The translations under genes were made by a program, and so were the position numbers. A stretch of 64,000 nt of DNA from an uncultured Christensenellaceae bacterium (GTDB taxonomy: Bacteria > Bacillota > Clostridia > Christensenellales > UBA3700), in contig CAJUOU010000002.1 of assembly GCA_910588545.1 (NCBI GenBank), forward strand, positions 96,228 through 160,227, in the 5' to 3' direction. The notes beneath the pieces were generated by a model that was not told where the DNA came from, searched no databases, and saw only the letters and a program-made list of their open reading frames with translations. This document shows, piece after piece, positions 7,728-55,765 of the stretch; the first letter of the stretch is position 1, and every line of letters starts with the position of its first letter.

Positions 7728-9929
7728 TTAATAGAACAACTCGATTCCTATGATTTTGTCAATCACATTCCTTACGATTTCCGCATCTGCAGTGGTTATT
7801 TCGCCTTTGTTTATTACCATACTCGCTAGCTTTTTCTCCACACTTAAACTTTCGTATAATGCGTTGTCACTTGCTATTTCTCTCAAGTAGGACACATCGC
7901 TTGCACTTATCCTTCCATCGCCGTTCACATCCCCCAATACGGATAGGTATATCGTTTCGCCGTTTGTCTGTATACACCATCCTGTTCCTATTGCCATCTC
8001 TTTGCCGTTATCTGCAATAGCACTGTTTATGCCACTATCTACTGCTCCGTTTTGATAAATTGTTTTGCCTTTACTATCCGATAGTTGTAAATTGTTTTTA
8101 TCAATACCCAAAGGTGCTAGGTTATTTACAAATTCGTTTACCGAAGTGTTTGGTTTTATATTTCCCAATACATATCTTTCCAACTCGCTGTCATTGTAAC
8201 CGTGTAATTTGTCATTTTCAGTATATGTTTTCCTATAGCCGTTATCCAAATAAACAAAATCATAAATTGATTTTTCTTTCAAATCAAAAATTACTTCCTC
8301 ATTTTTCAAAACAGCAACTTTTTTGCTGTCTTTGGTAAAAAAGTATTTTGACGGATTTTGATTTCCGTTGCCGTAATAAGTATACCCCAATGTGAAAGTT
8401 TTAAATAAATTATAGTTATCATTCAAATCAACTTGAATATGAGCATCTTTACCTTCGCTTGTAAGCAGACCTACTACTTCAACTTTAATATCCTGCGGCA
8501 AACACAAATCTGCATATTCTCCGTTGGATGAGTTGTCTTTTATAACAGTTGCTCCGCTGATTTGCAGCTTGCCTGCGCGAATATTTAGTCCGCCAGCATT
8601 TTCAGTTGCATGATTACCTGTTATAGTAGTATTTTTAATTGCTATGATATCTGCGATTGTAGAAATACCTGCGCCGTATTTTGCAGTGTTCCCCGTGATT
8701 TCGCAATTACTAATGCTCATTAGGGTCATATTATCATCGTTATAAATTCCACCGCCGGATTCTGCACTGCTATTATTTTGAAACACACAATTATTTAACG
8801 TACAAGACGAATTTTGATAATTAAAAATTGCACCTCCATAATTGTTTGCAACATTGCCTACAAAATTGCAGTTTGTAATCGTTGTAATTCCGTTGGAGAA
8901 AATGCCTGCACCGCTCATCTCACTTTCATTTTTATAAAAAACACAATCGTTTATTGTAACTTTTGTATTTTCATGAAATACGCTCAATGCTCCGCCATTT
9001 AATTTTGATGTGTTATTGCTGAAAACAACATTGTTCATTTCAAAATTTATACTGCCTGCAGCCATAATAGCACCTGCTTCAGTAGAAGACTTGTTTCCTA
9101 TTATAATTGAATTGCTAATAGATGTATTGTTCGTACAATGAAATGCTGCACCGCTAGTTTTTGTAGCACAGTTATTCATAAATAAACCGCCATTCACGAT
9201 AAGTTCTCCTGCAGCACAAATCGCACCGCCGGCTGGAGCATAAATATTATCAATTATCATACCACCATTAAATGTCAATTTTGCATTAGATTGAATATAA
9301 ATACCACCGCCTGTATCCATACATGCTCCACCTGTGATTTTACCAAAAGGCAAAGCTCTTAAAGCATTTATTTGAGTTGCTAATGGTTTGTCTTTATTTT
9401 CCTCGTAAGTATTAAACATTAACTCACTGTCGTATTTACTATCTATGATTGTCAAAGTACCTCCATTTAAAACTGTAAAAATAGACCCATAGCTCATTTT
9501 TGTAGTTTGTTTTTTATCAAGCGTATGTCCGTTTAAATCAAATATAATTGTTGCGCCATGTGGCACTGTTATAGAGCCACTGCCATTATAAAAGCCCTTA
9601 CCTACACCAAAAAAATAAGTATCTTCATGTGCAACCCAATCACTGTCAAGCAATACTTTTATTTCTTTGTTATTACCATCAAAGCTTTTTTGTATGGCAC
9701 CACTCCATAAAGCAGCTTTTTCATCTGTTGTACCTGTTAAAATAACATCAGGTGTATAGCCAACATCGGTAGCTTTTTCACTATCTACTATCTCTCCACT
9801 GCTTTGTGTTTTTAAAGTTTCGGTTTGTAAAGCAATGTTTGTAGATGCAAACAAACATCCTACAACTAAAAGACAAGAAATTACTAATACAAAAAATATT
9901 ATTCCAACTTTTTTAATAATCTTTGCCAT
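7728..9929 (-). CDS. secreted surface protein with polymorphic-membrane-protein (Pmp) type beta-helix repeats and a C-terminal dockerin-like module
   Basis: N-terminal signal peptide. Many GGAI/GGAL/SGAG plus FxxN-type repeats (NNYGGAIFNY, LNGGALSVF, ESGGGIYN). C-terminus GDVNGDGRISASDVSYLREIAS matches the dockerin Ca-binding repeat; the second repeat is degenerate. GGAGG SD upstream of the ATG. Confidence 0.8.
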   Translation of the reverse strand: MAKIIKKVGIIFFVLVISCLLVVGCLFASTNIALQTETLKTQSSGEIVDSEKATDVGYTPDVILTGTTDEKAALWSGAIQKSFDGNNKEIKVLLDSDWVAHEDTYFFGVGKGFYNGSGSITVPHGATIIFDLNGHTLDKKQTTKMSYGSIFTVLNGGTLTIIDSKYDSELMFNTYEENKDKPLATQINALRALPFGKITGGACMDTGGGIYIQSNAKLTFNGGMIIDNIYAPAGGAICAAGELIVNGGLFMNNCATKTSGAAFHCTNNTSISNSIIIGNKSSTEAGAIMAAGSINFEMNNVVFSNNTSKLNGGALSVFHENTKVTINDCVFYKNESEMSGAGIFSNGITTITNCNFVGNVANNYGGAIFNYQNSSCTLNNCVFQNNSSAESGGGIYNDDNMTLMSISNCEITGNTAKYGAGISTIADIIAIKNTTITGNHATENAGGLNIRAGKLQISGATVIKDNSSNGEYADLCLPQDIKVEVVGLLTSEGKDAHIQVDLNDNYNLFKTFTLGYTYYGNGNQNPSKYFFTKDSKKVAVLKNEEVIFDLKEKSIYDFVYLDNGYRKTYTENDKLHGYNDSELERYVLGNIKPNTSVNEFVNNLAPLGIDKNNLQLSDSKGKTIYQNGAVDSGINSAIADNGKEMAIGTGWCIQTNGETIYLSVLGDVNGDGRISASDVSYLREIASDNALYESLSVEKKLASMVINKGEITTADAEIVRNVIDKIIGIELFY

Positions 9930-9951
9930 AATAAAACCTCCGTTTTTATCT

Positions 9952-9978
9952 TACATAGAATAAGTATATCTATGTACA
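9952..9978. repeat. left inverted repeat of inverton 1
   Basis: TACATAGAATAAGTATATCTATGTACA. Its reverse complement matches 10100-10126 at 26/27 positions. Contains an internal dyad ACATAGA-N9-TCTATGT. Confidence 0.9.
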
Positions 9979-10057
9979 AAATCGCGATTTTTCGGAAAAG
10001 TTTTTTAAAGTTTTTGTAGCTTTTTTGTAAAGCTATTACAAAATGTTTAATTAAATG

Positions 10058-10087
10058 TTGACAAAAGTTTACTTTTGACCCTATAAT
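10058..10087 (+). promoter_or_regulatory. sigma-A type promoter inside inverton 1
   Basis: TTGACA (10058-10063), 18-nt spacer, TATAAT (10082-10087). Confidence 0.8.
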
Positions 10088-10099
10088 ATACATATAATA

Positions 10100-10126
10100 T
10101 GTACATAGATATACTTATTCCATGTA
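10100..10126. repeat. right inverted repeat of inverton 1
   Basis: TGTACATAGATATACTTATTCCATGTA, the partner of 9952-9978. Confidence 0.9.
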
Positions 10127-10140
10127 CCCAAACTTTACAT

Positions 10141-10233
10141 TAATGGCAAATTTTCAACCCCAATAGTCCCGATTTTTGATAGGATTATTGCAGTGAACGA
10201 TACTTTTTGCCAACTTTAAACTTTACACAAAAA
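10141..10233 (+). other. conserved non-coding module, copy 1 (paralog of 14231-14319)
   Basis: The 40-nt core CCGATTTTTGATAGGATTATTGCAGTGAACGATACTTTTT matches copy 2 at 35/40 positions, at the same distance (~42 nt) from the right IR. Also shares the AAACTTTACA(C/T)AAAAA motif. Confidence 0.7.
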
Positions 10234-10236
10234 GTA

Positions 10237-10274
10237 ACACCCCAAAACACAATGTTTCGGGGTGTATTTTATTT
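10237..10274 (+). terminator. intrinsic terminator ending the OFF-state transcript of inverton 1
   Basis: ACACCCCAAA / TTT(C)GGGGTGT stem followed by ATTTTATTT on the plus strand. Confidence 0.6.
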
Positions 10275-10523: not shown

Positions 10524-13500
10524 TTATTTACGCCTTTTCTTTTTATTCAATTTGCTATTAGGCTTGCTATCTTCATCAATTTTATCAGTGTCCACACCAT
10601 CAGCCGGCGTTATTTGATTTTGTAGCTTTTTAACCTTTTTTGCTTCGCTTTCTTTTAATGCGTAAAATAATATTCTTTCTTGCGGAGCTTCCAACACACT
10701 CAAGTTCAAAACATCATTTTCCTTTATTACAAATGTCCAATCTTTGTAACCTACCTTGTAGTTATTTACTATCGTTCCTCTTACATTTACTACTTCCTTT
10801 GGTTTTATATCCTCGGTATTGGTATTTGTCGCTCCGTTGTTTTCGCTTGCTGCTTGTTGGTTGTTTGCGGCATACTGTGCATAAGGTATTGCTTGTTGTG
10901 GAGTATTTTTATTTTTCTTTACTACTATCAATATTATTATCAACAACAATATAAATATTATCATAAAGATAAATATTGCTATTAATATCCACCACATATA
11001 CGGAGGCATATTTTTTAGTGTTTCTATTACACTATTCATTCCGCTATCCGTATTACCATTACTTCCACCATTCGGTTTGCCGTCAGTTCCGTTGTTATCG
11101 TCCTCGCCGTCGCCACCACTTGGGTTAGGGTTTACCTCTGTTTTAAAGCTGTATGTTTCCGTCTCGTCAACTAGCTCTCCGTTGTATTTTAAAAACACAC
11201 TGCCCTTATACTCATTTTTTACTTTCAAGGAGATTTGGTAATTTGTATCATACTTTAGCGTTGCAGTTGGCAATATTACATTGCCTATTATCTGCCCGTC
11301 TTTTACTTGGTATATTTCGTAATCAAAATACTTTTCTATCTCACTTTTTTCGTCAGATAATAGCGTTGGTCGTTTGTTTCCCGTTCCGTTTTGCCATCCG
11401 CTTATCTCAAACTCCAGCGTTTGTATATCCAAAGTTATTGTATATGTCGTGTTATCTCTATCCTCCCACACTACATTGTCTACTTCTCCGCCATTTGCTG
11501 TGTTTACTCCGTTTTTAAACGCTATTTGTATGCTATACTTTCCTGCTTTTGTAAACTTGTAGTTTTCGTCTACTACATTGCCGTCTACTGTTATTTCAAA
11601 GTAGCTCTTCCAATTTGTCGGCATATTGGCTACAGCACTTAACCCAAAGCCTTCTGCATCAAATATGTTTACTTGGTCTGCTTTTGGCTTTCTTATCTTT
11701 AAGCTTTCTATCTCATAATCAAAGGTATCTTCTCCTACTATCATAAAGTCGTCCAAACCACTTTGCAATCCTACCAACACTTTATATCTTCCTACATTTG
11801 TCGGTGCTCCGCTCAGTGGCGTACCGTCTGCTGTAGTGTAGCTTATTACCAAGTTACTTGCTGTCAATCCTCCGCCTGCTACATTTAGCTCTACAGCTTG
11901 TGACAAACCATTGTATGTAAACTTATTATTCTTTAAGCTTACCTCTACTTTATTTATTACCGACCCTGTTTGGAATACTTCCGATACTGAGTTTTCCTCA
12001 TTTCCATCTACTACAAATATACAGTTAGTGTTGTTAAATCCTATTGTATTTGTCGTAAATATTGCTTGTATATAATATGACTTTATTTCACTTATATCAT
12101 TTTCTGCAAATATTTGCTCTAATGTTACTTCATCAGTCAAATCACTCTTTCTAAAATACTTGTATTCTATTGCATTAGCTAAGTTTTCCGCTACTTGTAA
12201 TCTTGGTATTGGTAGCGTTATATCCCCTATTGTCACATTCTTTTTTGTCCATGATACCGCTACTTTCTTTTTGGTTATCTTCCAATTATGCTTTAGTTGT
12301 GGTATATTTGCTAGTTCCGCACTCGTATATGTTTTGTAGTTAGGGTCACTGCCTGTAAAATCAATTACACTTGCGATATAATCTCCTACTGCGGACTTAG
12401 CATTATTGTCATACACTGCTGTTAAAAAGGACGGTAGTCCAGAGGCTATCTCTACCTTTTGGTTTTGACCATTATATTCAAACTCGCTTTGACTCCACGT
12501 GACTTTGCTAAAATCTATTTCTGCCTTGTTTATGGTTATTTTTATCCATCGGACTGTATCGCTTTCCAAATGGTCGCTATCTGTGGTATCCGCAGTTCCT
12601 CTAAATCTTGGTTTTCTAAAATCTATTACTTCCTGTTTTTCGGTTTCCGTCCAACCGTATTTTAAAGCATCTTGCTCTACCAATGCAATTATTTTATTTG
12701 TCCAACTCTCTTTTATCTCTACCTTTACCCAATACTCTCCTGCGTTTTCGAATGCTTTAGTACTGTCGGGATAAGCAAGTTGAATAAACTCGTTATCTGA
12801 CTCATACAAATTTTTGTCATACCAAGCAGTATTGTTGTTTGTCTTTACAATTTCACTTAATGTTTGTGCTGTTGCATTATATGTTGTCTCCAAATCTTGG
12901 GGATTTTGCACTCCGTTTTCCAAGCCTCTTAGTATTTCGCTTAAATTTACATGTATTGCAGGGCGGACACCTCGCTCATTTGTTATACCCACATTAATCC
13001 ATCTACTAGCATCTGTACAAGTGGAATCAATATCGGAAAAAGCATATCCCCAACTATAATTATTATGATGAGCAGAACGTGTCCATGCTGTAGTAATCCC
13101 TTTTGATGCTATTTGCTCAGGCGACAATTTCCATCCAGATTCTACCAAAGTTCCATTGGAATAGTTTCCGCCAATTTCATAGACACTAGGTATCCAAATA
13201 TAGTCTTTACCCCAGTCGCTATATTTAATACCATCTACTGCATAATCGACTTCATACCCCCCGCCTGTATTAAATTGAGGTTTCCAATCAGGATAGTTGC
13301 TGTTTAGCGCATCATTTCCATAATCATAGGTACTAAACCCAAGTCTCATTGATTGTAGTTGTTGGTATTTAATATACTGCGGCTGAACTAAATATTTTGT
13401 AGCAAAATCGCCTTCGATAAATTGAGACATTTCGTTACTTGACAAAAGAGTATTTCTCAAAGTGCTGCTACTGTACATATTATTACCTTTCGATGCAGAA

Positions 13501-13988
13501 CCGTTTGTATAGAACTTGGACAATTTATACGAATCTGCTAAATATAAAGTTACAACAACATCTTCTTTGGAATAAAAATTTATATCGGTTAAAGTTACAG
13601 ATGTAACTATCCATTGATATCCACCGAGAGTAACAACTAAACCTGTTTCAGAACCAACTTGCGTATTTATAGTAGTAGCATTAACTAAATAAGTTGTTGT
13701 ATCCATATCAGGATTAATTTTATATACATGTTTTTTTACATAATCAGTCGGATTTTCTTTATTAAATAATTTTTCTTTCAAATTTAAAATTGCAAAATTA
13801 TTAAAAGACTTATTAACATTATCATATAATTCAGCACCATTCGCAACTTGAATAGCAGAGCTTGGATTTGATAAAGCCAATGCCTGTTTTGGAAAAATAA
13901 AAATACTTGCAATAAGACTACTAAATAGTACTATCATAAATGTTAACATTACTATAAATAGATACGATTTTTTTATGGTTTTCTTCAT
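10524..13988 (-). CDS. large type-I membrane surface protein/adhesin with DUF6273-like N-terminal domain, MBG-type Ig-like repeats, one C-terminal TM helix and a ~150-aa cytoplasmic tail
   Basis: Signal peptide. GVRPAIHVNL motif (DUF6273-like). MBG-like repeats (FEYNGQNQKVEI...VGDYIASV; FTYNGLSQAVEL...VGRYKVLV). G/N/D-rich linker. TM helix MWWILIAIFIFMIIFILLLIIILIVV followed by KKNKN and a basic tail ending KKKRRK. Confidence 0.75.
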   Translation of the reverse strand: MKKTIKKSYLFIVMLTFMIVLFSSLIASIFIFPKQALALSNPSSAIQVANGAELYDNVNKSFNNFAILNLKEKLFNKENPTDYVKKHVYKINPDMDTTTYLVNATTINTQVGSETGLVVTLGGYQWIVTSVTLTDINFYSKEDVVVTLYLADSYKLSKFYTNGSASKGNNMYSSSTLRNTLLSSNEMSQFIEGDFATKYLVQPQYIKYQQLQSMRLGFSTYDYGNDALNSNYPDWKPQFNTGGGYEVDYAVDGIKYSDWGKDYIWIPSVYEIGGNYSNGTLVESGWKLSPEQIASKGITTAWTRSAHHNNYSWGYAFSDIDSTCTDASRWINVGITNERGVRPAIHVNLSEILRGLENGVQNPQDLETTYNATAQTLSEIVKTNNNTAWYDKNLYESDNEFIQLAYPDSTKAFENAGEYWVKVEIKESWTNKIIALVEQDALKYGWTETEKQEVIDFRKPRFRGTADTTDSDHLESDTVRWIKITINKAEIDFSKVTWSQSEFEYNGQNQKVEIASGLPSFLTAVYDNNAKSAVGDYIASVIDFTGSDPNYKTYTSAELANIPQLKHNWKITKKKVAVSWTKKNVTIGDITLPIPRLQVAENLANAIEYKYFRKSDLTDEVTLEQIFAENDISEIKSYYIQAIFTTNTIGFNNTNCIFVVDGNEENSVSEVFQTGSVINKVEVSLKNNKFTYNGLSQAVELNVAGGGLTASNLVISYTTADGTPLSGAPTNVGRYKVLVGLQSGLDDFMIVGEDTFDYEIESLKIRKPKADQVNIFDAEGFGLSAVANMPTNWKSYFEITVDGNVVDENYKFTKAGKYSIQIAFKNGVNTANGGEVDNVVWEDRDNTTYTITLDIQTLEFEISGWQNGTGNKRPTLLSDEKSEIEKYFDYEIYQVKDGQIIGNVILPTATLKYDTNYQISLKVKNEYKGSVFLKYNGELVDETETYSFKTEVNPNPSGGDGEDDNNGTDGKPNGGSNGNTDSGMNSVIETLKNMPPYMWWILIAIFIFMIIFILLLIIILIVVKKNKNTPQQAIPYAQYAANNQQAASENNGATNTNTEDIKPKEVVNVRGTIVNNYKVGYKDWTFVIKENDVLNLSVLEAPQERILFYALKESEAKKVKKLQNQITPADGVDTDKIDEDSKPNSKLNKKKRRK

Positions 13989-14033: not shown

Positions 14034-14061
14034 GTACATAGAATATATATAATCTATGTAC
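14034..14061. repeat. left inverted repeat of inverton 2
   Basis: GTACATAGAATATATATAATCTATGTAC. Its reverse complement is identical (28/28) to 14185-14212. Internal dyad ACATAGA-N10-TCTATGT. Confidence 0.95.
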
Positions 14062-14142
14062 ATTTAGGAGCATTTTTCAAGCAATAAAATTAAAGTTTTG
14101 GTATAAATTAGTTAAAGTTCTTACAAAATGATTAGTTTAATA

Positions 14143-14172
14143 TTGACATTACTTTACTTTTAATCTTATAAT
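14143..14172 (+). promoter_or_regulatory. sigma-A type promoter inside inverton 2
   Basis: TTGACA (14143-14148), 18-nt spacer, TATAAT (14167-14172). Confidence 0.8.
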
Positions 14173-14184
14173 ATAACTGAAAAA

Positions 14185-14212
14185 GTACATAGATTATATA
14201 TATTCTATGTAC
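14185..14212. repeat. right inverted repeat of inverton 2
   Basis: GTACATAGATTATATATATTCTATGTAC, the perfect partner of 14034-14061. Confidence 0.95.
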
Positions 14213-14230
14213 TTTTTTTATCCTTTTATT

Positions 14231-14319
14231 TTATGGTAAATTGCAAGTTAATGCCGATTTTTGACGGCATTATTGCAGTGAACGACAATTTTTATATACT
14301 TCAAACTTTACATAAAAAA
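14231..14319 (+). other. conserved non-coding module, copy 2 (paralog of 10141-10233)
   Basis: Core CCGATTTTTGACGGCATTATTGCAGTGAACGACAATTTTT. Hairpin TAATGCCG-AUUUUUGA-CGGCATTA. Followed by CAAACTTTACATAAAAAA. Confidence 0.7.
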
Positions 14320-14320
14320 T

Positions 14321-14358
14321 AGCAACCCGAAAATTATATAAATAAGGTGCTGTTTTTT
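14321..14358 (+). terminator. possible weak terminator ending the OFF-state transcript of inverton 2
   Basis: AGCA(A)CC / GGTGCT short stem with a large loop, followed by GTTTTTT. Confidence 0.35.
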
Positions 14359-14464
14359 ATATTCGAAATTTTCGTTCAATGCAATTAGACATATTTAGGC
14401 TTAAAATTAAACCGAAAACTGCTTTTTAAGCAAAATATTTATACTACAGACGGCTTGGTTAAAT

Positions 14465-14650
14465 AAAAAAATAAGGCATATACCTTAAAGATATATGCCA
14501 AAAACGCAAATAGCGTGTAGTACCGCTCAACCGAAAGAAAACTATTTGAAAACCTCGTTCTTCGAGGTGGGTTAGCTACCTGATACCGCTGTCTTCCCCT
14601 GCCATAACCTAAAAGGTCGAGGGCGTGACATTGAGTACCACAACTCGCAG
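14465..14650 (-). ncRNA. candidate ~185-nt structured small RNA, class not identified (6S-like size and architecture)
   Basis: GC-rich island in an AT-rich intergenic region. TATAAT -10 box on the minus strand (14662-14657). Strong intrinsic terminator (GGCATATA/TATATGCC, 14475-14499, plus U-run). 5' segment GUGGUACUCAA can pair with 3' segment UUGAGCGGUACUAC. Internal hairpin ACCUCG-AAGAA-CGAGGU. Only a 19-codon ORF without an SD. Confidence 0.55.
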
Positions 14651-14808
14651 TCCCTTATTATAAATGTGGTTACAAAATGCAATTTCCTTTCAAATCTTGC
14701 AGTTATCCTACAACAATAGTATAACACATTTGAATGGTCATTACAATACCCTTTTTAAATTTTAATGTAAAAAATTTCCTAAATTAATGTTTAATAAACT
14801 TTACATTT

Positions 14809-14853: not shown

Positions 14854-15789
14854 TCAATATACTTCTTTTACGGAATGCTTGCTGTCGATAACAGTTTCGG
14901 CATCTATATAGTATTTTCTTTCGTTCCTACGATAGTAAATTACCAACCCGATGCTTTGATAGAAAATGTTTAAAAAGCTTGTTGCCATAATAAAGCCGAT
15001 ACCAAAAGTAATAAGCCCGAATAACATAATAAACATATAAGACACAAAATTGATTGCAGTAAACAAGCCCCAATTTTTTATTATCAAATCTTTATTAGTC
15101 AATATTGCTTTTTGCAAGCTTTTAAAAATACCAAGTTCCTCATTTATATAAGTTGGTAACCACATTGCAAACACTGAACGTTTTAGTGCAATCAACACCA
15201 TAAAAATCGTTAGGCACAGCGTTAAAGCAAACACAACCGACAACTTACCAACACCCCAAAATGTCAAATAAATCAAACCACACAACAATAGCATGTATGG
15301 GATGTAAATCAATGTATCTACAAAGCTGTAAGCAACTGATTTTTTCAAATGTGCAATTAGGTTTGATGTAAAACCAAATTTGCTATTGCTGTTCATAAAA
15401 TTATTTAACACATCTGCAAGCGGATAATGACCGATTGTGATTAAAAACTTTCCTAAAAAAGTAAATGCAAACAATGCACAAACAGCACCGACTACATTGT
15501 TCCTGTTAGTTGCAAACACTTCCGAAATTTTTGCAAAGTCTTGTCCCAAAATACCAAATGCAGAATTTTGAACAGCTAAATCGCCACCGAACATAGAGCG
15601 GAATGCATCCATACAATGTTCAAAGAAATGCATATTTTGTACGCCTTGTATAATAGGTCGCATAATATAGTACATTGAACTTATAGAAACCGCAGCAAAT
15701 ATAAGCATAACAATAGTTAAATACAGCAAAAATTTATAAAACAAGGAAAACCTCGAAACGGTTATCGAAAAAGAATGTTTTGCTAACAT
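14854..15789 (-). CDS. polytopic integral membrane protein, function unknown
   Basis: Multiple hydrophobic helices and no recognisable motif. Abuts the upstream membrane protein gene with a 1-nt gap. Confidence 0.55.
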   Translation of the reverse strand: MLAKHSFSITVSRFSLFYKFLLYLTIVMLIFAAVSISSMYYIMRPIIQGVQNMHFFEHCMDAFRSMFGGDLAVQNSAFGILGQDFAKISEVFATNRNNVVGAVCALFAFTFLGKFLITIGHYPLADVLNNFMNSNSKFGFTSNLIAHLKKSVAYSFVDTLIYIPYMLLLCGLIYLTFWGVGKLSVVFALTLCLTIFMVLIALKRSVFAMWLPTYINEELGIFKSLQKAILTNKDLIIKNWGLFTAINFVSYMFIMLFGLITFGIGFIMATSFLNIFYQSIGLVIYYRRNERKYYIDAETVIDSKHSVKEVY

Positions 15790-26810: not shown

Positions 26811-26828
26811 TTAGTAAATTAAATTTTG

Positions 26829-27017
26829 ATGCTAATAGAGGAGCAATCAGCAATAGTATGTCCGCCAAATGGTATGCAATTACCGACAGGCAGAAAGGGT
26901 ATGATTGCCGAGGTCTTAATCATATTGCAGTGGTTAAGGTTGGGTATAAGGCTAAATCCTTATAACTGTCATCTTAGATGGAGTACTATTATGCTAGCGG
27001 TAAAAATGCTTTTTATT
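26829..27017 (+). promoter_or_regulatory. lysine riboswitch (L-box) aptamer
   Basis: L-box hallmarks AUAGAGGAGC...AGUA, GAAAGGG...UUGCCGAGG and AACUGUCA...UGGAGUACUAU. Lies upstream of lysine/DAP pathway genes. Confidence 0.85.
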
Positions 27018-27044: not shown

Positions 27045-27173
27045 AATATTCAAACATAAATTTCAAGCAAATTATATGTATAAGCAGTTTTACAAGCATG
27101 TTACAATCGGATAAATCAAAAAATTATTTATCCGTTATAAATTAGATTTTTATTTTTATTCATGGAGGCATAT

Positions 27174-28172
27174 ATGAAAAAATTCAATGTTGCAGTTGTT
27201 GGTGCTACCGGTATGGTAGGCAACAAATTTTTGGAAGTTTTAACTGAAAGACAACTTCCTGTGGAAAATTACTATCTTTTTGCTTCAAGCAAAAGTGCGG
27301 GTAAAGTTATCGATTTTATGGGCAAACCTCACACTGTTATCGAACTTACTAACGAAAATATCGCAAAATACCCTGTAGATTTTGCTTTATTCTCTGCAGG
27401 CGGCTCTACTTCTGCAAAATTCGCACCTGAATTTGTAAAATGCGGTGCTATCGTTGTAGATAACTCTAGCCAATGGCGTATGTATGACAATGTTCCGCTA
27501 GTAGTTCCGGAGGTTAATCCCGATGATATAGATTGGAACGAAGGTATTATCGCAAACCCTAACTGTTCTACTATTCAAGCTATGGTTGCCCTAAAACCTC
27601 TTCACGATAAATATACTATCAAACGTATTGTTTATAGTACATACCAAGCTGTATCAGGTGCAGGTGTTGCAGGATATAACGATTTGGTTGAGGGTGTAAA
27701 AGGTGCAGAACCTAAAAAATTCCCATACCCTATCTTTAATAACGTGCTACCTCACATAGACGTATTCTTGCCAAGCGGCTACACTAAAGAAGAAGAAAAA
27801 ATGATGAAAGAAACTCAAAAGATTCTTGACAAAAACATCAAAGTTACAGCTACAACTGTCAGAGTGCCTGTATTAAACAGCCACAGTGAATCTATTAATG
27901 TAGAGTTTGAAAAACCTTGCACTTTGGAAGGTATTTACGATGCTTTGAGAAATGCTGAAAGTGTTATTTTGTATGATGACCCAGCAAACTTGAAATACCC
28001 TATGCCTATTATTTCTAGCGGCCACGACGAAACTTATGTAGGAAGAGTAAGAATTGACGAGACTGTTCCAAGCGGTTGTAACTTATGGGTAGTTGCAGAT
28101 AACATCCGTAAAGGTGCTGCAACAAATGCCGTTCAAATTATGCAAAAATTAATGGAAAAGAAATCTAAATAA
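27174..28172 (+). CDS. asd: aspartate-semialdehyde dehydrogenase
   Basis: VAVVGATGMVG NAD(P)-binding motif and active-site NPNCSTI. Start moved to ATG 27174, downstream of a GGAGG SD (the ORF track starts at 27162). Confidence 0.93.
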   Translation: MKKFNVAVVGATGMVGNKFLEVLTERQLPVENYYLFASSKSAGKVIDFMGKPHTVIELTNENIAKYPVDFALFSAGGSTSAKFAPEFVKCGAIVVDNSSQWRMYDNVPLVVPEVNPDDIDWNEGIIANPNCSTIQAMVALKPLHDKYTIKRIVYSTYQAVSGAGVAGYNDLVEGVKGAEPKKFPYPIFNNVLPHIDVFLPSGYTKEEEKMMKETQKILDKNIKVTATTVRVPVLNSHSESINVEFEKPCTLEGIYDALRNAESVILYDDPANLKYPMPIISSGHDETYVGRVRIDETVPSGCNLWVVADNIRKGAATNAVQIMQKLMEKKSK

Positions 28173-28189
28173 TAATCGGAGGTACTATT

Positions 28190-29068
28190 ATGTTTTCAGG
28201 CGTTGCTACTGCTCTTATCACACCGTTCAACTTTAAGGGTGTGGATTTTGAAGCTTACGGCAGACTAATAGAAGACCAAATTGCAAACGGAATAGATGCT
28301 TTGGTTGTGCTTGGCACAACAGGCGAGGCATCAACAATGTCACATGACGAAAAAGTGGCTACTATCAAATTTGCAATCGAAAAAATAAACAAAAGAGTAC
28401 CTGTTATAGTAGGTACAGGTTCTAACTGCACCGCAACTGCTGTTGAAAACAGTATCGAAGCCGAAAAATTGGGTGCAGACATGTTGCTTGTAGTTACACC
28501 ATACTATAACAAATGCACACAAGAGGGGCTTATTGCGCACTACTCTCAAATAGCAAGTGCAGTAAACACTCCTATCATCGCATACAATGTTCCTGGCAGA
28601 ACGGGCGTAAACATTTTGCCAAAGACAATCAAAGCCCTAGCAAACATTCCTAATATTGTTGCAGTAAAGGAAGCAAGTGGCAACATAAGCCAAATAGCAA
28701 GCGTTGTTGCCGAAGTACGCGGCAGTGATTTTAAAGTTTACAGCGGCGACGATGGTATTATTTTGCCTGTAATGAGCTTAGGAGCAGATGGTTTAATAAG
28801 CGTTGCAAGCAATGTCATCCCTAAACAAATGGTAGATATGGTAAAAGCTGCTAAAGAGGGAGATTTAAAAACAGCTCAAAACTTGTTTTTCAAATATCGT
28901 CCTTTGATGGAAGTAATGTTTTGCGAAACAAATCCTATTCCTGTAAAATTCGCTTGTTCAAAGTTAGGTTACGGTGAAAATTTGCCAAGGTTGCCTTTGA
29001 CACCTATTTCAGAGACAGGAAAAATAAAAGTATTGGACGAAATGTATAACGTCGGATTGATAAAATAA
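28190..29068 (+). CDS. dapA: 4-hydroxy-tetrahydrodipicolinate synthase
   Basis: DapA pattern ALITPF...GTTGE...YNVPGRT...VKEASG. Confidence 0.93.
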   Translation: MFSGVATALITPFNFKGVDFEAYGRLIEDQIANGIDALVVLGTTGEASTMSHDEKVATIKFAIEKINKRVPVIVGTGSNCTATAVENSIEAEKLGADMLLVVTPYYNKCTQEGLIAHYSQIASAVNTPIIAYNVPGRTGVNILPKTIKALANIPNIVAVKEASGNISQIASVVAEVRGSDFKVYSGDDGIILPVMSLGADGLISVASNVIPKQMVDMVKAAKEGDLKTAQNLFFKYRPLMEVMFCETNPIPVKFACSKLGYGENLPRLPLTPISETGKIKVLDEMYNVGLIK

Positions 29069-29091
29069 CAAAATTACTCTCGGAGGAGTTT

Positions 29092-29862
29092 ATGACTAAT
29101 GTATTAATATGGGGTATCGGTGGCAGAATGGGTCGAACTTTGCTTGAATGCCTTAACAAAAACAGCAATGCGAACGCTATAGGCGGTGTAGATAAATTTG
29201 CAAATAAAGCAGATTTTAATATCCCAATCTTCAAAAGTGTTTCCGAAATCAATGTAAAAGCAGACGTAATTATAGATTTTTCACGTGCGGAAGCAATTTA
29301 CGATTTTTTGCCATACGCTAAGGAAAATAAAATTCCGGTTGTGCTATGTACCACAGGTTATAGTGAGCTTGACTTGGACTATATTTCCGAAATGTCAAAA
29401 GAAATACCGCTATTTAAATCCAGCAATATGTCAATAGGTATTAACTTGCTTATCGATTTAGTTAAAAAAGCAACTAACCTTCTTGGCGAAAACTTTGATA
29501 TCGAACTTATCGAGCAACACCATAATGTAAAAGTTGATAGTCCATCGGGCACTGCACTTTCTATCGCAAATGCCATAAATGAAGAAATGAACAACACTTT
29601 AGAATTCAAGTTTGGCAGACACGATAGCAATGAACGACGCAAAAAAAATGAATTGGGTATTCATGCCGTAAGAGGTGGAACAGTTGTCGGCAAACATGAA
29701 GTACTATTTCTTGGAAATGACGAAATTATTACAATTAAACACGAGGCAAGCTCAAAAGCTGTTTTTGCCGAAGGTGCTGTAAAGGCTAGTATTTTTATGA
29801 CAAGCATAAAAACTCCGGGTATTTACAATATGAATGATTTAATTCAATCAACTGAAAATTAA
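29092..29862 (+). CDS. dapB: 4-hydroxy-tetrahydrodipicolinate reductase
   Basis: DapB signature ELIEQHHNVKVDSPSGTA. Confidence 0.9.
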   Translation: MTNVLIWGIGGRMGRTLLECLNKNSNANAIGGVDKFANKADFNIPIFKSVSEINVKADVIIDFSRAEAIYDFLPYAKENKIPVVLCTTGYSELDLDYISEMSKEIPLFKSSNMSIGINLLIDLVKKATNLLGENFDIELIEQHHNVKVDSPSGTALSIANAINEEMNNTLEFKFGRHDSNERRKKNELGIHAVRGGTVVGKHEVLFLGNDEIITIKHEASSKAVFAEGAVKASIFMTSIKTPGIYNMNDLIQSTEN

Positions 29863-49887: not shown

Positions 49888-50826
49888 CTATATAATTTGC
49901 TTACTTTGCAAAACAGCTTTTATGTTGCTGCTGCGTACAGCATAACCTATACCCGCTACTATATGTTCGTTTGAATCCGTACCGTCAACCCTTCGTAAGT
50001 AGTTGATTCCAACAAATTCTCCCGCAGTATTAAATAACATGTTGTTTGTCAAAACATAATTATCATTTTTATCTATTGCCTCAAAGCCGTGTTTAAAATC
50101 CAACCCCGTTACATAAGTATCGTAATCCGACTTGTTGAAATAGCCTTGTGTTGTGAATGAAGCTGCCATCATTTCCGCAGGTATTCCGTTAGGATGATTA
50201 CTCATAATGTCCACACCTGTCATCATGGATTTTGAAGAAACCAATACAGGAATAGTCTTAAAATATTCCGCAGTAGGGATATCCAAAGAAGAACTGTTGT
50301 TATACACCCTGCTGTCAGGCACAATAACTTCCACCCCAAAAATCATTTGCCCAAGTTTGACTATGTCGGTAGTATCGTTATTTTTTGCAAATTTGACAGG
50401 CTTTAGTTTTACACTGTTTTTGTCCTTAAGCGTTAATACATTAAAACCATAATCATTATTCCTTGCAAAATTGTTATCTTCCGTCTTGTAGACAAAGTCA
50501 AATCTGCCTTTTGTATTATAAACTCTGCCCTTATAATAGTTTATCTCAGGCAAATTCAGTTTATTTAACGGAATCGTTTGCCTTGGAACAATTATTTTAT
50601 CTTCGGAAATAGCAACTCCCATAGAATAATAATATGTAAAATTTCCCGGAACAACTTCCACCACAACACAGGAAGACAAAACATCTTCCATAGCATCGGA
50701 AATTACGACACTTCCGATGCCGTCCAAATTATAGTTTCTCTCCTCCGGTTTGCACCCCGTAAAGGCAAGTAAAGCTAGCGTTAATAAAATCGCTAGCGAT
50801 ACAAACAATTTAAACTTAATTTTCAT
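49888..50826 (-). CDS. lipoprotein, degenerate (catalytically inactive) paralog of the adjacent S1 protease
   Basis: Lipobox AFTGC. C-terminal FNTAGEFVGINYLR...IGYAVRSSNIKAVL aligns with FDASGKLAGIVTLR...GIAYAMPASTVKDYV of the neighbour. The GNSGG Ser and NNHV His motifs are absent. Confidence 0.55.
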   Translation of the reverse strand: MKIKFKLFVSLAILLTLALLAFTGCKPEERNYNLDGIGSVVISDAMEDVLSSCVVVEVVPGNFTYYYSMGVAISEDKIIVPRQTIPLNKLNLPEINYYKGRVYNTKGRFDFVYKTEDNNFARNNDYGFNVLTLKDKNSVKLKPVKFAKNNDTTDIVKLGQMIFGVEVIVPDSRVYNNSSSLDIPTAEYFKTIPVLVSSKSMMTGVDIMSNHPNGIPAEMMAASFTTQGYFNKSDYDTYVTGLDFKHGFEAIDKNDNYVLTNNMLFNTAGEFVGINYLRRVDGTDSNEHIVAGIGYAVRSSNIKAVLQSKQII

Positions 50827-51724
50827 TTATCAATGCCTTTATATCGCTGTATAGTTTATCTGCGATATGTAATTTCCAAATTTCCGTATGAGTGGCAGTC
50901 CCTCCAATAGGAATGTTTTGCAACTCTGACAAACTTTCCACTTCAATAAAATCTTTACAAGTATAAAGCTCTGTAGAAGAAGAATAGTCTGCGTAATTTC
51001 CATCCCTCTTTGCTTTTGGGAAAATCTTTTCCACTAATTTGTCGCCACGAATGTAGTAAACAATACCTTCGGTATTTAATGTTCCTATTTTCATAGGTCC
51101 TTTGCAATCAGGGTCTTGCCTCATGCTTATGTAATCTTGTTTTATTTGCAACCTGTCATCCGCAACATCCGTATACGGCCAAATAACTAAATTGCGGTTA
51201 GCAAGAAGTCCCGTATCTTCCTTTGACATAGGGATAACTGCCGTACCGTATTTGTTCATAACGGATAATGCCCACAATGCTACATTAAGCGGTTTGTCGC
51301 CGCAATTATAAAAAGCATGTTCAACAGTTACGTCGCCATTTTCTGTCATAGTAACCTTTATAGTTTTTCCGATACCGGTAACTTTATCGTTTCCGCTAAA
51401 AAATACAGCACCATTATCAATCAAGGTCACATCTACCTTATTATGGTCGGGTTGATAGCTGGACTCATCCTCAGGAGATTTCCAAAGTCTGTGACCGCCA
51501 TAAATTTTCCAAACTTCGCCTTTTTTATAGTTTTTGTCAAGAAATTCGCTTGGACGCTTATTTAATCCAAGGTCATCGGTGTGCATCATATTATCTTCAT
51601 CCGTTGTTCCGTAATAAATAATACGCGGACCTAAATCAGTAGTAACACGTAGCACAACAACACCGTTTGAAATTTCCAAACAATTACCAAAAGTGCTGAA
51701 ATTTACATTTTTAATAGTAACCAT
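50816..51724 (-). CDS. hypothetical cytoplasmic protein (beta-sandwich, possibly mutarotase-like)
   Basis: No diagnostic motif recognised. 11-nt overlap with the downstream lipoprotein gene. Confidence 0.35.
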   Translation of the reverse strand: MVTIKNVNFSTFGNCLEISNGVVVLRVTTDLGPRIIYYGTTDEDNMMHTDDLGLNKRPSEFLDKNYKKGEVWKIYGGHRLWKSPEDESSYQPDHNKVDVTLIDNGAVFFSGNDKVTGIGKTIKVTMTENGDVTVEHAFYNCGDKPLNVALWALSVMNKYGTAVIPMSKEDTGLLANRNLVIWPYTDVADDRLQIKQDYISMRQDPDCKGPMKIGTLNTEGIVYYIRGDKLVEKIFPKAKRDGNYADYSSSTELYTCKDFIEVESLSELQNIPIGGTATHTEIWKLHIADKLYSDIKALINEN

Positions 51725-52236: not shown

Positions 52237-52899
52237 TTATTTTTGTAAAAATTTCTCATTTTTTTTGTCGTCTATCAACAGCAAGTCATTTAAAACGCTG
52301 TCTATGTTTATTATTTTTTTACTGCTATTCAAGCAGATTCTCACTTCGTTGATTACATCTATCATTTGATAACGAAAATTGGTAAGAATCCTTTTGATAA
52401 ACGGAAAAGCCGAGTAAATACTACCCGCGCAATTTGTAACTGCATAAGCAATAACGCCTGCAATATCTGTGTACTGCATTCCTTCTTCCACACTATCGTA
52501 ATCAATGCCGTAACATCTTCCGTCTTTTATAATAAAATTATCAAAAGAAATATCTTTTAAAATATAATTATCCGCAAGCGTATAAAAGATTTGCAAAAAA
52601 ATCGAAAGTTCGTTGGCAAGTCTTATAAGTCCGTCAACATTATCGCTCATAGTATACAATAAAAATTTGTCTTTTAGCAAATCTCCCTCGATATACTCGT
52701 AAATGATAAAGTCTTCTCCCATTTCTATTATTTTGGGAGCATAGCCGGAAACCGAAAGTTGATTTAATATAGTAGTTTCAATATTCAAAGTTTTTATGTC
52801 TTGATATTTTTTTACTACTACAGACATACCTTTTTCATTTTTTGCAAGACATACTTTATTACTTGTACGACTTAATTGTTTTATTATTTCTAGATTCAT
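52237..52899 (-). CDS. small protein-kinase-like fold protein (CotS/choline-kinase/RIO-like)
   Basis: Lys region VVVKKY, catalytic-loop-like DISFDNFII and a DFG-equivalent GIDYDS. Start moved to ATG 52899 (GGGGA SD). The upstream part of the ORF-track ORF looks non-coding. Confidence 0.5.
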   Translation of the reverse strand: MNLEIIKQLSRTSNKVCLAKNEKGMSVVVKKYQDIKTLNIETTILNQLSVSGYAPKIIEMGEDFIIYEYIEGDLLKDKFLLYTMSDNVDGLIRLANELSIFLQIFYTLADNYILKDISFDNFIIKDGRCYGIDYDSVEEGMQYTDIAGVIAYAVTNCAGSIYSAFPFIKRILTNFRYQMIDVINEVRICLNSSKKIINIDSVLNDLLLIDDKKNEKFLQK

Positions 52900-53101
52900 A
52901 AGTTCCCCATACTGAATTAGCGTAAAAAATTTTATTTCCAACGCAATCCGCACTATGTAGTATTCTATCAAATATTTTTTAGTATAGCAAGCAAAAAGGC
53001 TATCAATTTTTAAAAATAAACGCATTTTAGCTAAAAATATCGCGAATAATTGATAAATAATAGTAAATACTAATATAAACAAAAGATTATTAGGAGGATT
53101 T

Positions 53102-53413
53102 ATGAAAGGTTTAAAATGCACTACAAGCAACTGCGAGTTTAATGAGGGTTTTCACTGTAAAGCCGGCGTTGTAAACATCGATAAAAGAGGCAACTGTATT
53201 ACAAGAATAAAAAGAGAAAACGGAGTAATCGAACAAGAATTCGTCAATATGGAAGTTTCAAGCGAATTTAACTATTCAGATAACGAGGATACTTTAATAA
53301 AGTGCAATAGCACAGACTGCAGTTACAACAAATGTTTCAAATGTGCTGCCGATTTCATCAATGTAGGAGAAAAATTGCTTTCTACCAAATGCAAAACAAG
53401 AACTAAAGACTAA
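53102..53413 (+). CDS. DUF1540-domain protein (two Cys-rich repeats)
   Basis: Repeats CTTSNCEFNEGFHCKAGVVNI and CNSTDCSYNKCFKCAADFINV. AGGAGG SD. Confidence 0.75.
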   Translation: MKGLKCTTSNCEFNEGFHCKAGVVNIDKRGNCITRIKRENGVIEQEFVNMEVSSEFNYSDNEDTLIKCNSTDCSYNKCFKCAADFINVGEKLLSTKCKTRTKD

Positions 53414-53486: not shown

Positions 53487-55556
53487 TTATATCAATTTTA
53501 TTTCCAATTCAATAACACCGCAAATAGGATAAATATAATCGATTAATTTTTTATCTTCCGTGCCGAACAATTCATTTATATTATCCAAAAATCTATAAAT
53601 ATTATTATTAACACTACCACCTACAACCAAGTATACCGTTTGAGTTGTTTGAGTTTGTGCAATGTCTAAACCGACAATGTCAAGTATAGTTAAGTTTTCG
53701 GTAATTTGATTGTTTAACATATCAACATATTTGCCTTCTACACTAGCACCAATTAAAGCATTCAAATCTTGAGCTGTCAAATCCTTAAGAGTACCGTCCC
53801 CATTATAGATATCTTGAGCTGTAATTATTTTAATAATGTTTTGTGAATTGAATGTATAGTCGATTTTACTATTTATAGGAGCCATAATATCTTTGATACC
53901 GTCTGTTTCGCTGTAGCAAAACTCCCTGTTTTCCAAAAACTTTGCTTTTATATTCCAATCTGTTATATGCTCGTTAGTATGAACAACAGTGTAATCTATA
54001 CTATCTACATTAGGAAATACTATATCCAAAACTTTTGCGATTGTATCTTTATACTCCGCAAAGACATCTGCTTTCAAAATACTATTTACTATTTGAGTAA
54101 AATCAATCGTATTACTGTCATTTACAGCCATAATTTGTGGCAAAATAATATTATCAGTACTACTTACTTCAGCTTTTTTAATATAAGCCGACGGGTCAAT
54201 ACTAAAAATCAAATCTTCTTTTGGTAAAAGGTCTAATATCTCTTGTGCGGAAACCAATGTGCCGTCATTTATCATTTCGGATATTTTTTCCGCAAAATCG
54301 GCACCTACGCTGCCCCTTATATTAAAAGCAAAGTAAACTCTATTAGTCCCAAAAGAATTAGGGTCATAAGCAACAGTCAATAACGGACGAGAGTCATTGC
54401 TCAAATGATTGATTTTGCAACTATTATCGCAAATGTGTTTTACCTCTATATAAATTTTCCCGCTCTCGTCTTTAAACATTTTGTCTACAATCGGCATTGC
54501 ACTTTGCTTTACGGCACATTCTATCAAACTTGAAAATATTTGTGTTTTGTTAAAATCAAAATTAGCAGTATATTCATAATTTCCTAAAATATCGCCGTTT
54601 TTATCTTTCAAATTAAAAGTGCCATTCAAATTGCTTGGCAATAAAAAGCTGTCAAAATCCATAAATTCCGTAGGCGTACTAATAACAGGTATGCTGTTTA
54701 ATAATCTAAATCCACCGACGCCGCAATTAACAGTCATTTCACTTGTGCCAACTTTTGCGGCAATTTTCATATCAGTTAATTTTCCACCTTTATAGTTATA
54801 TTTTGGTGCACCTTTGGCTGGTTTTACAACTTTTTCTCTTTGATTACCTGCTGTTTTTATATCAAAGTAAATACTAACATCATTAAGCTCTGCTTTTACA
54901 CTCTCAAATATCTCTTCGGAGCCTGGGATAAACGACATTAATCCGTCAATCAAACTATTAAGTTTAAAATCAAATGTATAATTTACATCATAAGAATTTT
55001 TTTCTTTAAGCACAGGTCTTACGGTAATACAGCTCCCTTCCATATTGATTGCATCATTTACCAAATTTATTATAGGCATCTTTAAAAGTCCTGCCAAATC
55101 CCCTACGCTAAAGCCTAATGTTTCATTTATAATAGAGCCTATGCCTTGAAATTTTATTTCATTTATTTTTAACGGTTTATCATTTAGCCCGTCAGCATAA
55201 ACAAAAGTACCATCACTGTTTGATATTACCTCTGCGATAGTTTTATTTGCAAAATTATTTACTATTGCTAAGTGCAAGCCCTCTTTAACGCTTGCGTTGC
55301 TGGAAATACCGCCCTGCAAAACAAAATTGATATCTTTGCCTTCGCCTTTTAGATTGACATTTACATCAATACCCAAAGTATCCGTTGCCGTCTGAAAATT
55401 ATCAATCGACCAAGCATCCCAAATTTCTTCAAGCGTTATCATACTGTCAACAGCAGAAAACGACTCCGGGTCTTTAGGGTCACATGCAACAAGTACTAAA
55501 GTAAGCATACTTACTAGCAGTACGATTACAATAGCAAAACTAAATTTCTTTTTCAT
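53487..55556 (-). CDS. large (689 aa) lipoprotein, function unknown
   Basis: MKKKFSFAIVIVLLVSMLTLVLVACDP (lipobox). Start moved to ATG 55556, downstream of a GAGGTG SD. Confidence 0.6.
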   Translation of the reverse strand: MKKKFSFAIVIVLLVSMLTLVLVACDPKDPESFSAVDSMITLEEIWDAWSIDNFQTATDTLGIDVNVNLKGEGKDINFVLQGGISSNASVKEGLHLAIVNNFANKTIAEVISNSDGTFVYADGLNDKPLKINEIKFQGIGSIINETLGFSVGDLAGLLKMPIINLVNDAINMEGSCITVRPVLKEKNSYDVNYTFDFKLNSLIDGLMSFIPGSEEIFESVKAELNDVSIYFDIKTAGNQREKVVKPAKGAPKYNYKGGKLTDMKIAAKVGTSEMTVNCGVGGFRLLNSIPVISTPTEFMDFDSFLLPSNLNGTFNLKDKNGDILGNYEYTANFDFNKTQIFSSLIECAVKQSAMPIVDKMFKDESGKIYIEVKHICDNSCKINHLSNDSRPLLTVAYDPNSFGTNRVYFAFNIRGSVGADFAEKISEMINDGTLVSAQEILDLLPKEDLIFSIDPSAYIKKAEVSSTDNIILPQIMAVNDSNTIDFTQIVNSILKADVFAEYKDTIAKVLDIVFPNVDSIDYTVVHTNEHITDWNIKAKFLENREFCYSETDGIKDIMAPINSKIDYTFNSQNIIKIITAQDIYNGDGTLKDLTAQDLNALIGASVEGKYVDMLNNQITENLTILDIVGLDIAQTQTTQTVYLVVGGSVNNNIYRFLDNINELFGTEDKKLIDYIYPICGVIELEIKLI

Positions 55557-55765
55557 ACTTTCACCTCTATAAATTAGCGCAAAAATAAACTCTTTCAATA
55601 ATCAAGTTACCCCTCAACTTATAACGATTATTTAGAGAATATACCGCAGATTTATTTATATTATTATATCATATTTAAATTAAATTTGCAATAGCTAATC
55701 AAAAAAATGACACTCTTAAAATAAATATCTTTACATTATCATTCTATTGTGTTATAATTTAATAT

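Follow-up and report, generated by a model that had tools for sequence, protein, structure and literature searches.

The window, by which we mean the whole 64-kb stretch of DNA that was analysed, carries two short segments bounded by inverted repeats, each holding a consensus promoter and each lying directly in front of a minus-strand gene. The features are, in order:

7728-9929, minus strand: controlled gene, 733 aa; secreted, Pmp-repeat beta-helix, C-terminal dockerin match below threshold.
9930-9951, minus strand: fixed leader of 22 nt with Shine-Dalgarno sequence ACGGAGGTTTTATT before the ATG at 9929; kept in ~70 paralogues.
9952-9978: gene-proximal site IR-L, TACATAGA-ATAAGTATA-TCTATGTA(CA); two palindromic arms of 8-9 bp and an asymmetric 9-nt spacer.
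9979-10099: invertible segment, OFF here; 121 bp if bounded by the 27-nt repeats, 125 bp if bounded by the 25-nt cores.
10058-10087, plus strand: sigma-70-type promoter TTGACA-18-TATAAT; consensus match; 91 of 96 family cassettes have a promoter placed likewise.
10100-10126: gene-distal site IR-R; a single arm mismatch (TCCATGTA).
10127-10236: fixed distal element of switch 1; TTTACAT, then CCGATTTTTGAnnGnATTATTGCA (10169-10192), then AAACTTTACAYAAA.
10237-10265: terminator hairpin of 13 bp, with T-rich tracts on both sides (both strands).
10524-13988, minus strand: gene of switch 2, 1154 aa; signal peptide, no Pfam or NCBIfam match.
14034-14212: switch 2, OFF; sites 14034-14065 and 14181-14212 (31/32), promoter 14143-14172 (plus strand); fronts the gene 10524-13988.
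14213-14360: distal element and terminator of switch 2; motif at 14254-14277.

The gene behind switch 1 belongs to a family that we name after its MAKxIKRxG motif, and its product is probably of the lipoprotein type, as judged by an LLVVGC lipobox read from the sequence. A sequence-only reading of this DNA had described the protein as a Pmp-repeat protein with a dockerin. The repeats were borne out by a Chlam_PMP match of 28.1 bits, above the cut-off. The dockerin is tentative: Dockerin_1 matches residues 665-721 just short of the threshold, with 20.6 bits against a Pfam gathering cut-off of 22.9. Several paralogues of the protein carry a precomputed PF00404 hit.

The same reading had proposed that an invertible promoter, in its OFF orientation, sits upstream of this gene, and the architecture it described is present. 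The two 27-nt arms are complementary at 26/27 positions (96%) and enclose 121 nt; when up to three mismatches are allowed, the arm occurs just twice in the 64-kb window, where 100 shuffles gave an expectation of 0. The promoter matches the consensus at 12/12 positions and points away from the gene at 7728-9929. Perfect TTGACA-18-TATAAT promoters number two in the 64 kb (10058-10087 and 14143-14172) against 0.12 expected, and these are the promoters of the two switches. The gene starts at the ATG at 9929 on the minus strand, and the 22 nt at 9930-9951 hold a GGAGG. Three points of the description needed amendment. The repeats are real inverted repeats, but each of them is a full core site with palindromic arms. 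The argument that there is no room for a fixed promoter stands for the 22 nt next to the gene and fails further out, where a weak extended -10-like motif in the distal element is directed towards the gene. Finally, the promoter had been called the only obvious content of the segment; a conserved fixed element and a two-way terminator lie on the far side as well.

Within the repeats, the core site follows the pattern (G)TACATAGA-N9/10-TCTATGTAC(C), with a centre of 9-10 nt, or of 7-8 nt with 10-bp arms; in switch 2 the centre is 10 nt. Each is laid out like a complete site on which a site-specific recombinase would bind as a dimer, and the two lie in opposite orientations. The features that characterise tyrosine-recombinase core sites, in which two inverted binding arms enclose a crossover spacer of 6-8 bp, are found here: palindromic arms, an asymmetric centre, and a spacer that is equal in both partner sites (95 of 111 switches). 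An apparent asymmetry between outer and inner arms in the site logo was rejected as an artefact of a scan pattern that demanded exact inner arms.

Inside the cassette, a hairpin at 10016-10042 (GTAGCTTT-N5-AAAGCTA) and a conserved TTACAAAATG directly upstream of the -35 box are common to most cassettes; they may represent an UP element or a factor-binding site. The part of the cassette beside the proximal site (9979-9995) differs between the window (CCGAAAAATCGCGATTTTG) and the related loci L001 and L002 (CAAAAAAACTCCAATTTTG) by 6 substitutions in 12 nt, while the remaining ~630 nt agree except for a single substitution early in the alignment. Both the CCGAAAAATCGCGATTTTG and the CAAAAAAACTCCAATTTTG type recur among other orthologues and paralogues, and this recurrence suggests gene conversion between switches.

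Switches 1 and 2 align over the cassette and a further ~150 nt on the gene-far side. Among 45 unique copies of the distal element, drawn from at least four species, CCGATTTTTGAnnGnATTATTGCA and AAACTTTACAYAAA are invariant and TTTACAT is nearly so. Taking the distal elements at 10127-10236 and 14213-14330 together with 50 related loci, the invariant blocks are CCGATTTTTGAnnGnATTATTGCA and AAACTTTACA. A TTTACA motif occurs twice in the distal element, ~90 nt apart, and resembles a half-site (TACAT). The extended -10-like motif, TGCAATAAT, faces the gene (10213 to 10184) as part of a weak TTGGCA-18-(TG)cAATAAT arrangement; its -35 is not kept between species, and the invariant block exceeds the length that a promoter would require. 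The hairpin at 10237-10265 shows compensatory changes among paralogues and is a predicted two-way terminator, which would end transcripts made in the OFF state and shield the switch against transcription running in from upstream. RNAalifold on the 45 copies found essentially no conserved covarying structure in the distal element (-0.2 kcal/mol) except the terminator, and a search of the switch and distal element against Rfam gave no match. A small open reading frame was considered and dismissed: the element of switch 1 lacks a start codon and has an in-frame stop, while that of switch 2 has a 29-codon ORF there. Our best guess is that the distal element is a protein-binding accessory or insulator module; less probably, it may act as an OFF-state RNA.

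The proposal of an invertible promoter in its OFF state is supported by the opposite orientations of one allele in two contigs from sister samples, by an ON copy at a relative of switch 2, by the recurrence of the cassette in a large family and by a linked recombinase. For switch 1, orthologues of the 733-aa protein were looked up and were 90-95% identical to it. One of them, P0139 (91% identical), is encoded identically on two contigs from sister samples, L129 and L130. The cassette of L129 is oriented as in the window, which is OFF. In L130 it is ON: over the 101 nt upstream of the proximal site, its gene strand has 100% identity to the opposite strand of window positions 10000-10100. The site, the Shine-Dalgarno sequence, the ATG and the first 100 nt of the gene are identical across the window, L129 and L130. 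It had been predicted that flipping the segment would bring the -10 box to 9991-9996; mirroring the segment puts it there, and the naturally flipped L130 has its -10 at the matching position: the -35 begins 91 nt upstream of the ATG and the -10 ends 62 nt upstream of it. Contig L130 breaks off within the switch, 149 nt before the ATG, and the ON state was thus read at the proximal junction only.

Among the 13 orthologous assemblies, 12 are OFF and 1 is ON, and 4 of them end inside the switch. The complete paralogues of the switch 1 type were OFF in 68 cases and ON in none. The complete copies recovered in a scan of metagenomes were likewise all OFF, and the sole ON-like copy there is a 13-nt contig end: in L106, a paralogue on a metagenome contig, 13 nt of the promoter end lie beside the proximal site where the contig stops, and the locus looks ON.

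Switch 2 provides a second case. An exact look-up of its 1154-aa protein returned no record. The related locus L089 is colinear with the window on both flanks (93% and 90% identity), and its cassette is inverted, matching at 119/125 positions when reverse-complemented and at 72/94 when compared on the same strand. The promoter faces the gene there, making the locus ON.

Contig ends were frequent at these loci. At least 9 of the 27 contigs from the metagenome scan stop within or at a switch, and L094, L100, L102, L104, L106, L107, L112, L128, L129, L130 and L132 all end inside a switch or at its edge. The switch cassettes are systematic assembly break points, as would be expected if a sample held both orientations or if near-identical copies tangled the assembly graph.

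The window itself holds no further copies of the switch besides switches 1 and 2. We scanned one genome per species for two sites, using a pattern of a site, 105-135 nt and a half-site, and obtained 87 stretches, all from 16 metagenome-assembled genomes (MAGs). These comprise mouse-gut MAGs labelled 'uncultured Christensenella sp.' (MGBC catalogue), rabbit 'Lapin' Clostidia, Clostridia SRR15634022_bin.6 and a Bacillota MAG; one MAG contains 32 switches and another 22. The metagenome scan, whose pattern was the proximal site followed by a Shine-Dalgarno sequence and an ATG, added 27 further stretches. Throughout the family the offset from site to site is almost always 150 bp, and 91 of 96 cassettes have a near-consensus promoter in a fixed place, where 12-13 nt separate the end of the -10 from a site. 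Orientation was called from the direction of the promoter relative to the adjacent signal-peptide gene, and the 113 switches were divided into 90 OFF, 6 ON and 17 undetermined. Spacers differ between classes of switch (ATAAGTATA, ATATATATAA and ATACATATA), and such class-specific spacers would keep different classes from recombining together.

The genes beside the switches fall into a few families. The MAKxIKRxG family has 69 members in our sample, all with the Shine-Dalgarno sequence ACGGAGGTTTTATT 21-25 nt after the site. Others are the family of the 1154-aa protein, a family of ~560-590 aa and, in the rabbit MAGs, type IV pilin-like genes with the GFTLAE prepilin motif. In the rabbit-gut Clostridia MAGs (L004, L006, L016, L028, L038 and L047) the same core site and recombinase accompany these pilin-like genes. 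The rabbit pilin switches are ON in L006 and L016 and OFF in L004, L028 and L038, and at the rabbit pilin loci the recombinase gene runs up to the distal site or ends within it.

Within the window, a Pfam search of the 44 ORFs of at least 150 aa found no recombinase and no PF00239 match. Beside such switches in eight lineages, we found a tyrosine recombinase of ~304 aa (PF00589 with a SAM-like PF14659 domain). It directly abuts the distal site in L004, L006, L011, L015, L016 and L047. In L031 and L110 it lies 2 kb from the switch with a metallophosphoesterase gene between, and the order recombinase, metallophosphoesterase, switch is seen in L031 and L110 and in L117-L121. P0008, a 78%-identical orthologue, is followed by the metallophosphoesterase, a switch and a surface gene, with another switch upstream. 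Look-ups of P0004, P0007, P0008 and P0011 showed that the synteny of recombinase and metallophosphoesterase is kept, with switches near P0008 only and no contig overlapping the window. In all lineages examined this gene pair sits among housekeeping genes, indicating that the recombinase gene is resident on the chromosome and does not belong to a mobile element. In L031, L110, L117-L126, L133 and L134, a gene for a metallophosphoesterase of ~430-455 aa follows the recombinase gene in every case, in a housekeeping neighbourhood; in L118 this second gene is split into ORFs of 133 and 308 aa.

A regular-expression scan of the 808 ORFs across all loci recovered 7 tyrosine recombinases next to switches and 0 serine-recombinase N-terminal motifs. 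A serine invertase of the Hin/Gin/Mpi type was rejected, as no resolvase-family gene linked to the sites turned up among these ORFs. Nor is the enzyme of the FimB/FimE type (21.7 bits against NF007371, 'tyrosine-type DNA invertase', cut-off 222) or one of XerC and XerD (65.5 bits for XerC, cut-off 335; 49.6 bits for XerD, cut-off 330). Its nearest solved structure is the Tn1549 Int (E = 5e-21), and Clostridia contain more than 7,500 members of the wider family. The same core site accompanies the recombinase in lineages that differ greatly in GC content, and alongside differing cargo genes. Because the site travels with the enzyme in this way, there is good circumstantial evidence that the ~304-aa tyrosine recombinase is the invertase.

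Taken together, we consider it very likely that this inverton gives ON/OFF phase variation of the gene for the 733-aa surface protein, through an enzyme that would be encoded elsewhere and act in trans. Weighing against it are the lack of a recombinase gene in the 64-kb window and the scarcity of ON copies, with 1 among the 13 orthologous assemblies and none among the 68 complete paralogues of the switch 1 type. That expression depends on orientation is a prediction from the promoter consensus alone. In the OFF state, the promoter would read outward through the distal site and the distal element, giving a transcript of ~180 nt that ends at 10237-10265; the same hairpin would stop read-through from the upstream gene and leave the 733-aa gene silent. 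The -10-like motif in the distal element, if active, would make the OFF state leaky. In the ON state, with the -10 at 9991-9996, transcription would start ~55 nt before the ATG at 9929, and the leader would contain the proximal site and the fixed Shine-Dalgarno region. A chromosomal tyrosine recombinase of ~304 aa, presumably encoded elsewhere in the genome, would act in trans on switches 1 and 2 and probably also on dozens of other switches. Most loci would be OFF in most cells, and the outcome would be antigenic or adhesive variation of a paralogous surface-protein family.

Other explanations differ in how much of this they retain. The cassette could be a static repeat, dispersed and MITE-like or a dead hairpin, with the opposite orientations being fixed differences or assembly artefacts. 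Nearly all assemblies do share one orientation, and dozens of near-identical copies could mislead assemblers. What speaks against a static repeat is that L129 and L130 hold opposite cassettes beside an identical protein allele and identical flanks, and that the ON junction needs k-mers across the 27-nt repeat, so that reads must contain the junction. Moreover, both sites are intact at 26/27 positions or better in more than 100 copies, spacers remain identical in the 95 of 111 switches mentioned above, as continued recombination requires, and a dedicated recombinase is syntenic with the sites. We regard this explanation as extremely improbable. Scarcely more credible, and still highly unlikely, is a fixed promoter (the motif running from 10213 to 10184) combined with an invertible attenuator, as in cwpV or flgB of Clostridioides difficile, where the cassette would tune read-through, either through a terminator or through head-on collision with its own promoter. 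The invariance of TGCAATAAT in the 45 unique distal elements, its promoter-like form with a TG, and the 7-bp hairpin inside the cassette speak for this arrangement. However, the -35 of the distal motif is not kept between species, its -10 is AATAAT, and the invariant block runs 15 nt past it, which a promoter does not explain. The relatives with an adjacent recombinase have no distal element, no hairpin with a T-run after it is conserved in either orientation, and the one feature kept in 91 of the 96 cassettes is the near-consensus promoter 12-13 nt from a site.

An extension of the phase-variation model, which does not exclude it, is that the switch works as a two-way toggle between the surface-protein mRNA and a regulatory RNA, the OFF state expressing a conserved non-coding RNA of ~180 nt. 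The OFF promoter reads into a conserved element with a terminator at its end, shuffled sequences fold less well than the predicted RNA (z = -3.6), and the distal motifs are invariant over at least four species. Set against this are the failure of RNAalifold to find covarying structure beyond the terminator in 45 copies, the lack of an Rfam match, and the fact that protein-binding DNA or concerted evolution of duplicated units would explain the conservation equally well. We think such a toggle unlikely. A more comprehensive version, speculative and likewise unlikely, would be a genome-wide antigenic-variation regulon of an uncultured low-GC gut Clostridia lineage, in which one vertically inherited chromosomal tyrosine recombinase serves at least 30 uniform 150-bp cassettes before genes for different lipoprotein-like beta-helix or other surface proteins, each cassette a two-way toggle whose OFF state involves either a distal regulatory RNA or an accessory site that biases inversion to OFF.

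The phase-variation model has parallels in several known systems. In Escherichia coli, fimS is a single locus of 314 bp with 9-bp repeats, inverted by the tyrosine recombinases FimB and FimE. As in fimS, a short promoter segment lies between inverted repeats, is associated with a tyrosine recombinase and controls a surface structure; the order recombinase, switch, pilin gene in the rabbit-gut L004, L006 and L016 resembles that of fimB/E, fimS and fimA. Unlike fimS, the cassettes here are 125 bp with sites of 25-28 bp and occur at dozens of loci per genome, and unlike FimB and FimE the recombinase has ~304 aa and a SAM-like N-terminal domain. Mpi of Bacteroides fragilis is a serine recombinase acting on multi-locus invertible promoters of polysaccharide operons. 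Our family shares with the Mpi regulon a single repeat motif at many scattered promoters, surface targets, a predominance of OFF states and, as proposed here, a recombinase acting in trans. It differs in having a tyrosine recombinase, another repeat motif and single protein genes in low-GC Clostridia, as opposed to operons in Bacteroidota. Context for the multi-locus invertible promoters of B. fragilis is given in PMC4747536.

In Clostridioides difficile, RecV operates ~eight switches, including those of cwpV, flgB and pdcB, which have dissimilar repeats and several of which act after transcription initiation (PMC9286219). The common ground is a host in the class Clostridia, a tyrosine recombinase acting in trans (as proposed here) and several short switches before surface or signalling genes; in contrast, the present family numbers at least 32 near-uniform cassettes, each with a consensus promoter. 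Inverton group 139 with invertase group 35, from cultured gut Clostridia, nearly always has a tyrosine-type recombinase/integrase within 5 kb and has repeats of ~26 nt (PMC11892184). Our recombinase-adjacent relatives resemble it in layout, which is the basis of the comparison and not the repeat motif, but that group is present at about one copy per genome versus at least 22-32 here. That survey of cultured gut strains reports a median of 3 invertons per genome for Clostridia-like Firmicutes_A (PMC11892184), next to which at least 22-32 uniform promoter cassettes in one MAG is unusual. The Vsa and Vpma systems of Mycoplasma vary lipoproteins by Xer-like recombinases, which move one promoter among clustered genes by 5'-end inversions (PMC2268961). 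They too combine a tyrosine recombinase with a large paralogous family of lipoprotein-like surface proteins in a low-GC Gram-positive lineage, whereas here each gene has a private invertible promoter and the genes are dispersed. Our literature search found nothing on invertons in Christensenella, and phase variation combined with Christensenellales returned unrelated work only.

The principle of the invertible promoter was already known, and the locus is a real inverton belonging to a large undescribed regulon. The novelty lies in how many and how uniform the cassettes are for an organism of the class Clostridia, at 22-32 near-identical ones per MAG. All cassettes share one core site linked to one recombinase family and control large paralogous families of surface proteins, in bacteria for which mouse and rabbit gut metagenomes are the only source. 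Surface variation in the lineage is probably as extensive as in Bacteroides. In practical terms, the core-site pattern offers a simple sequence-based way to locate the whole regulon. In addition, the switches break metagenome assemblies and confound the annotation of MAGs, because the genes behind them look promoterless.

Some further observations concern the host and the rest of the window. The G+C content of the window is 34%, and its relatives are labelled 'uncultured Christensenella sp.'; cultured Christensenella have ~50% G+C. The label probably hides a separate low-GC lineage. Large minus-strand ORFs with no Pfam or NCBIfam match lie at 10524-13988, 53487-55598, 49888-51724 and 52237-53130, the first being the only one with a switch. 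Between switch 2 and the gene at 14854-15789, the minus strand at 14516-14708 gives a full-length match to 6S/SsrS RNA, which is below threshold (40 bits, E = 1e-5; gathering cut-off 46.4), followed by a terminator hairpin at 14499-14475. Finally, a lysine riboswitch (88 bits) is located at 26828-26996 on the plus strand, upstream of asd-dapA-dapB (27162-29862).
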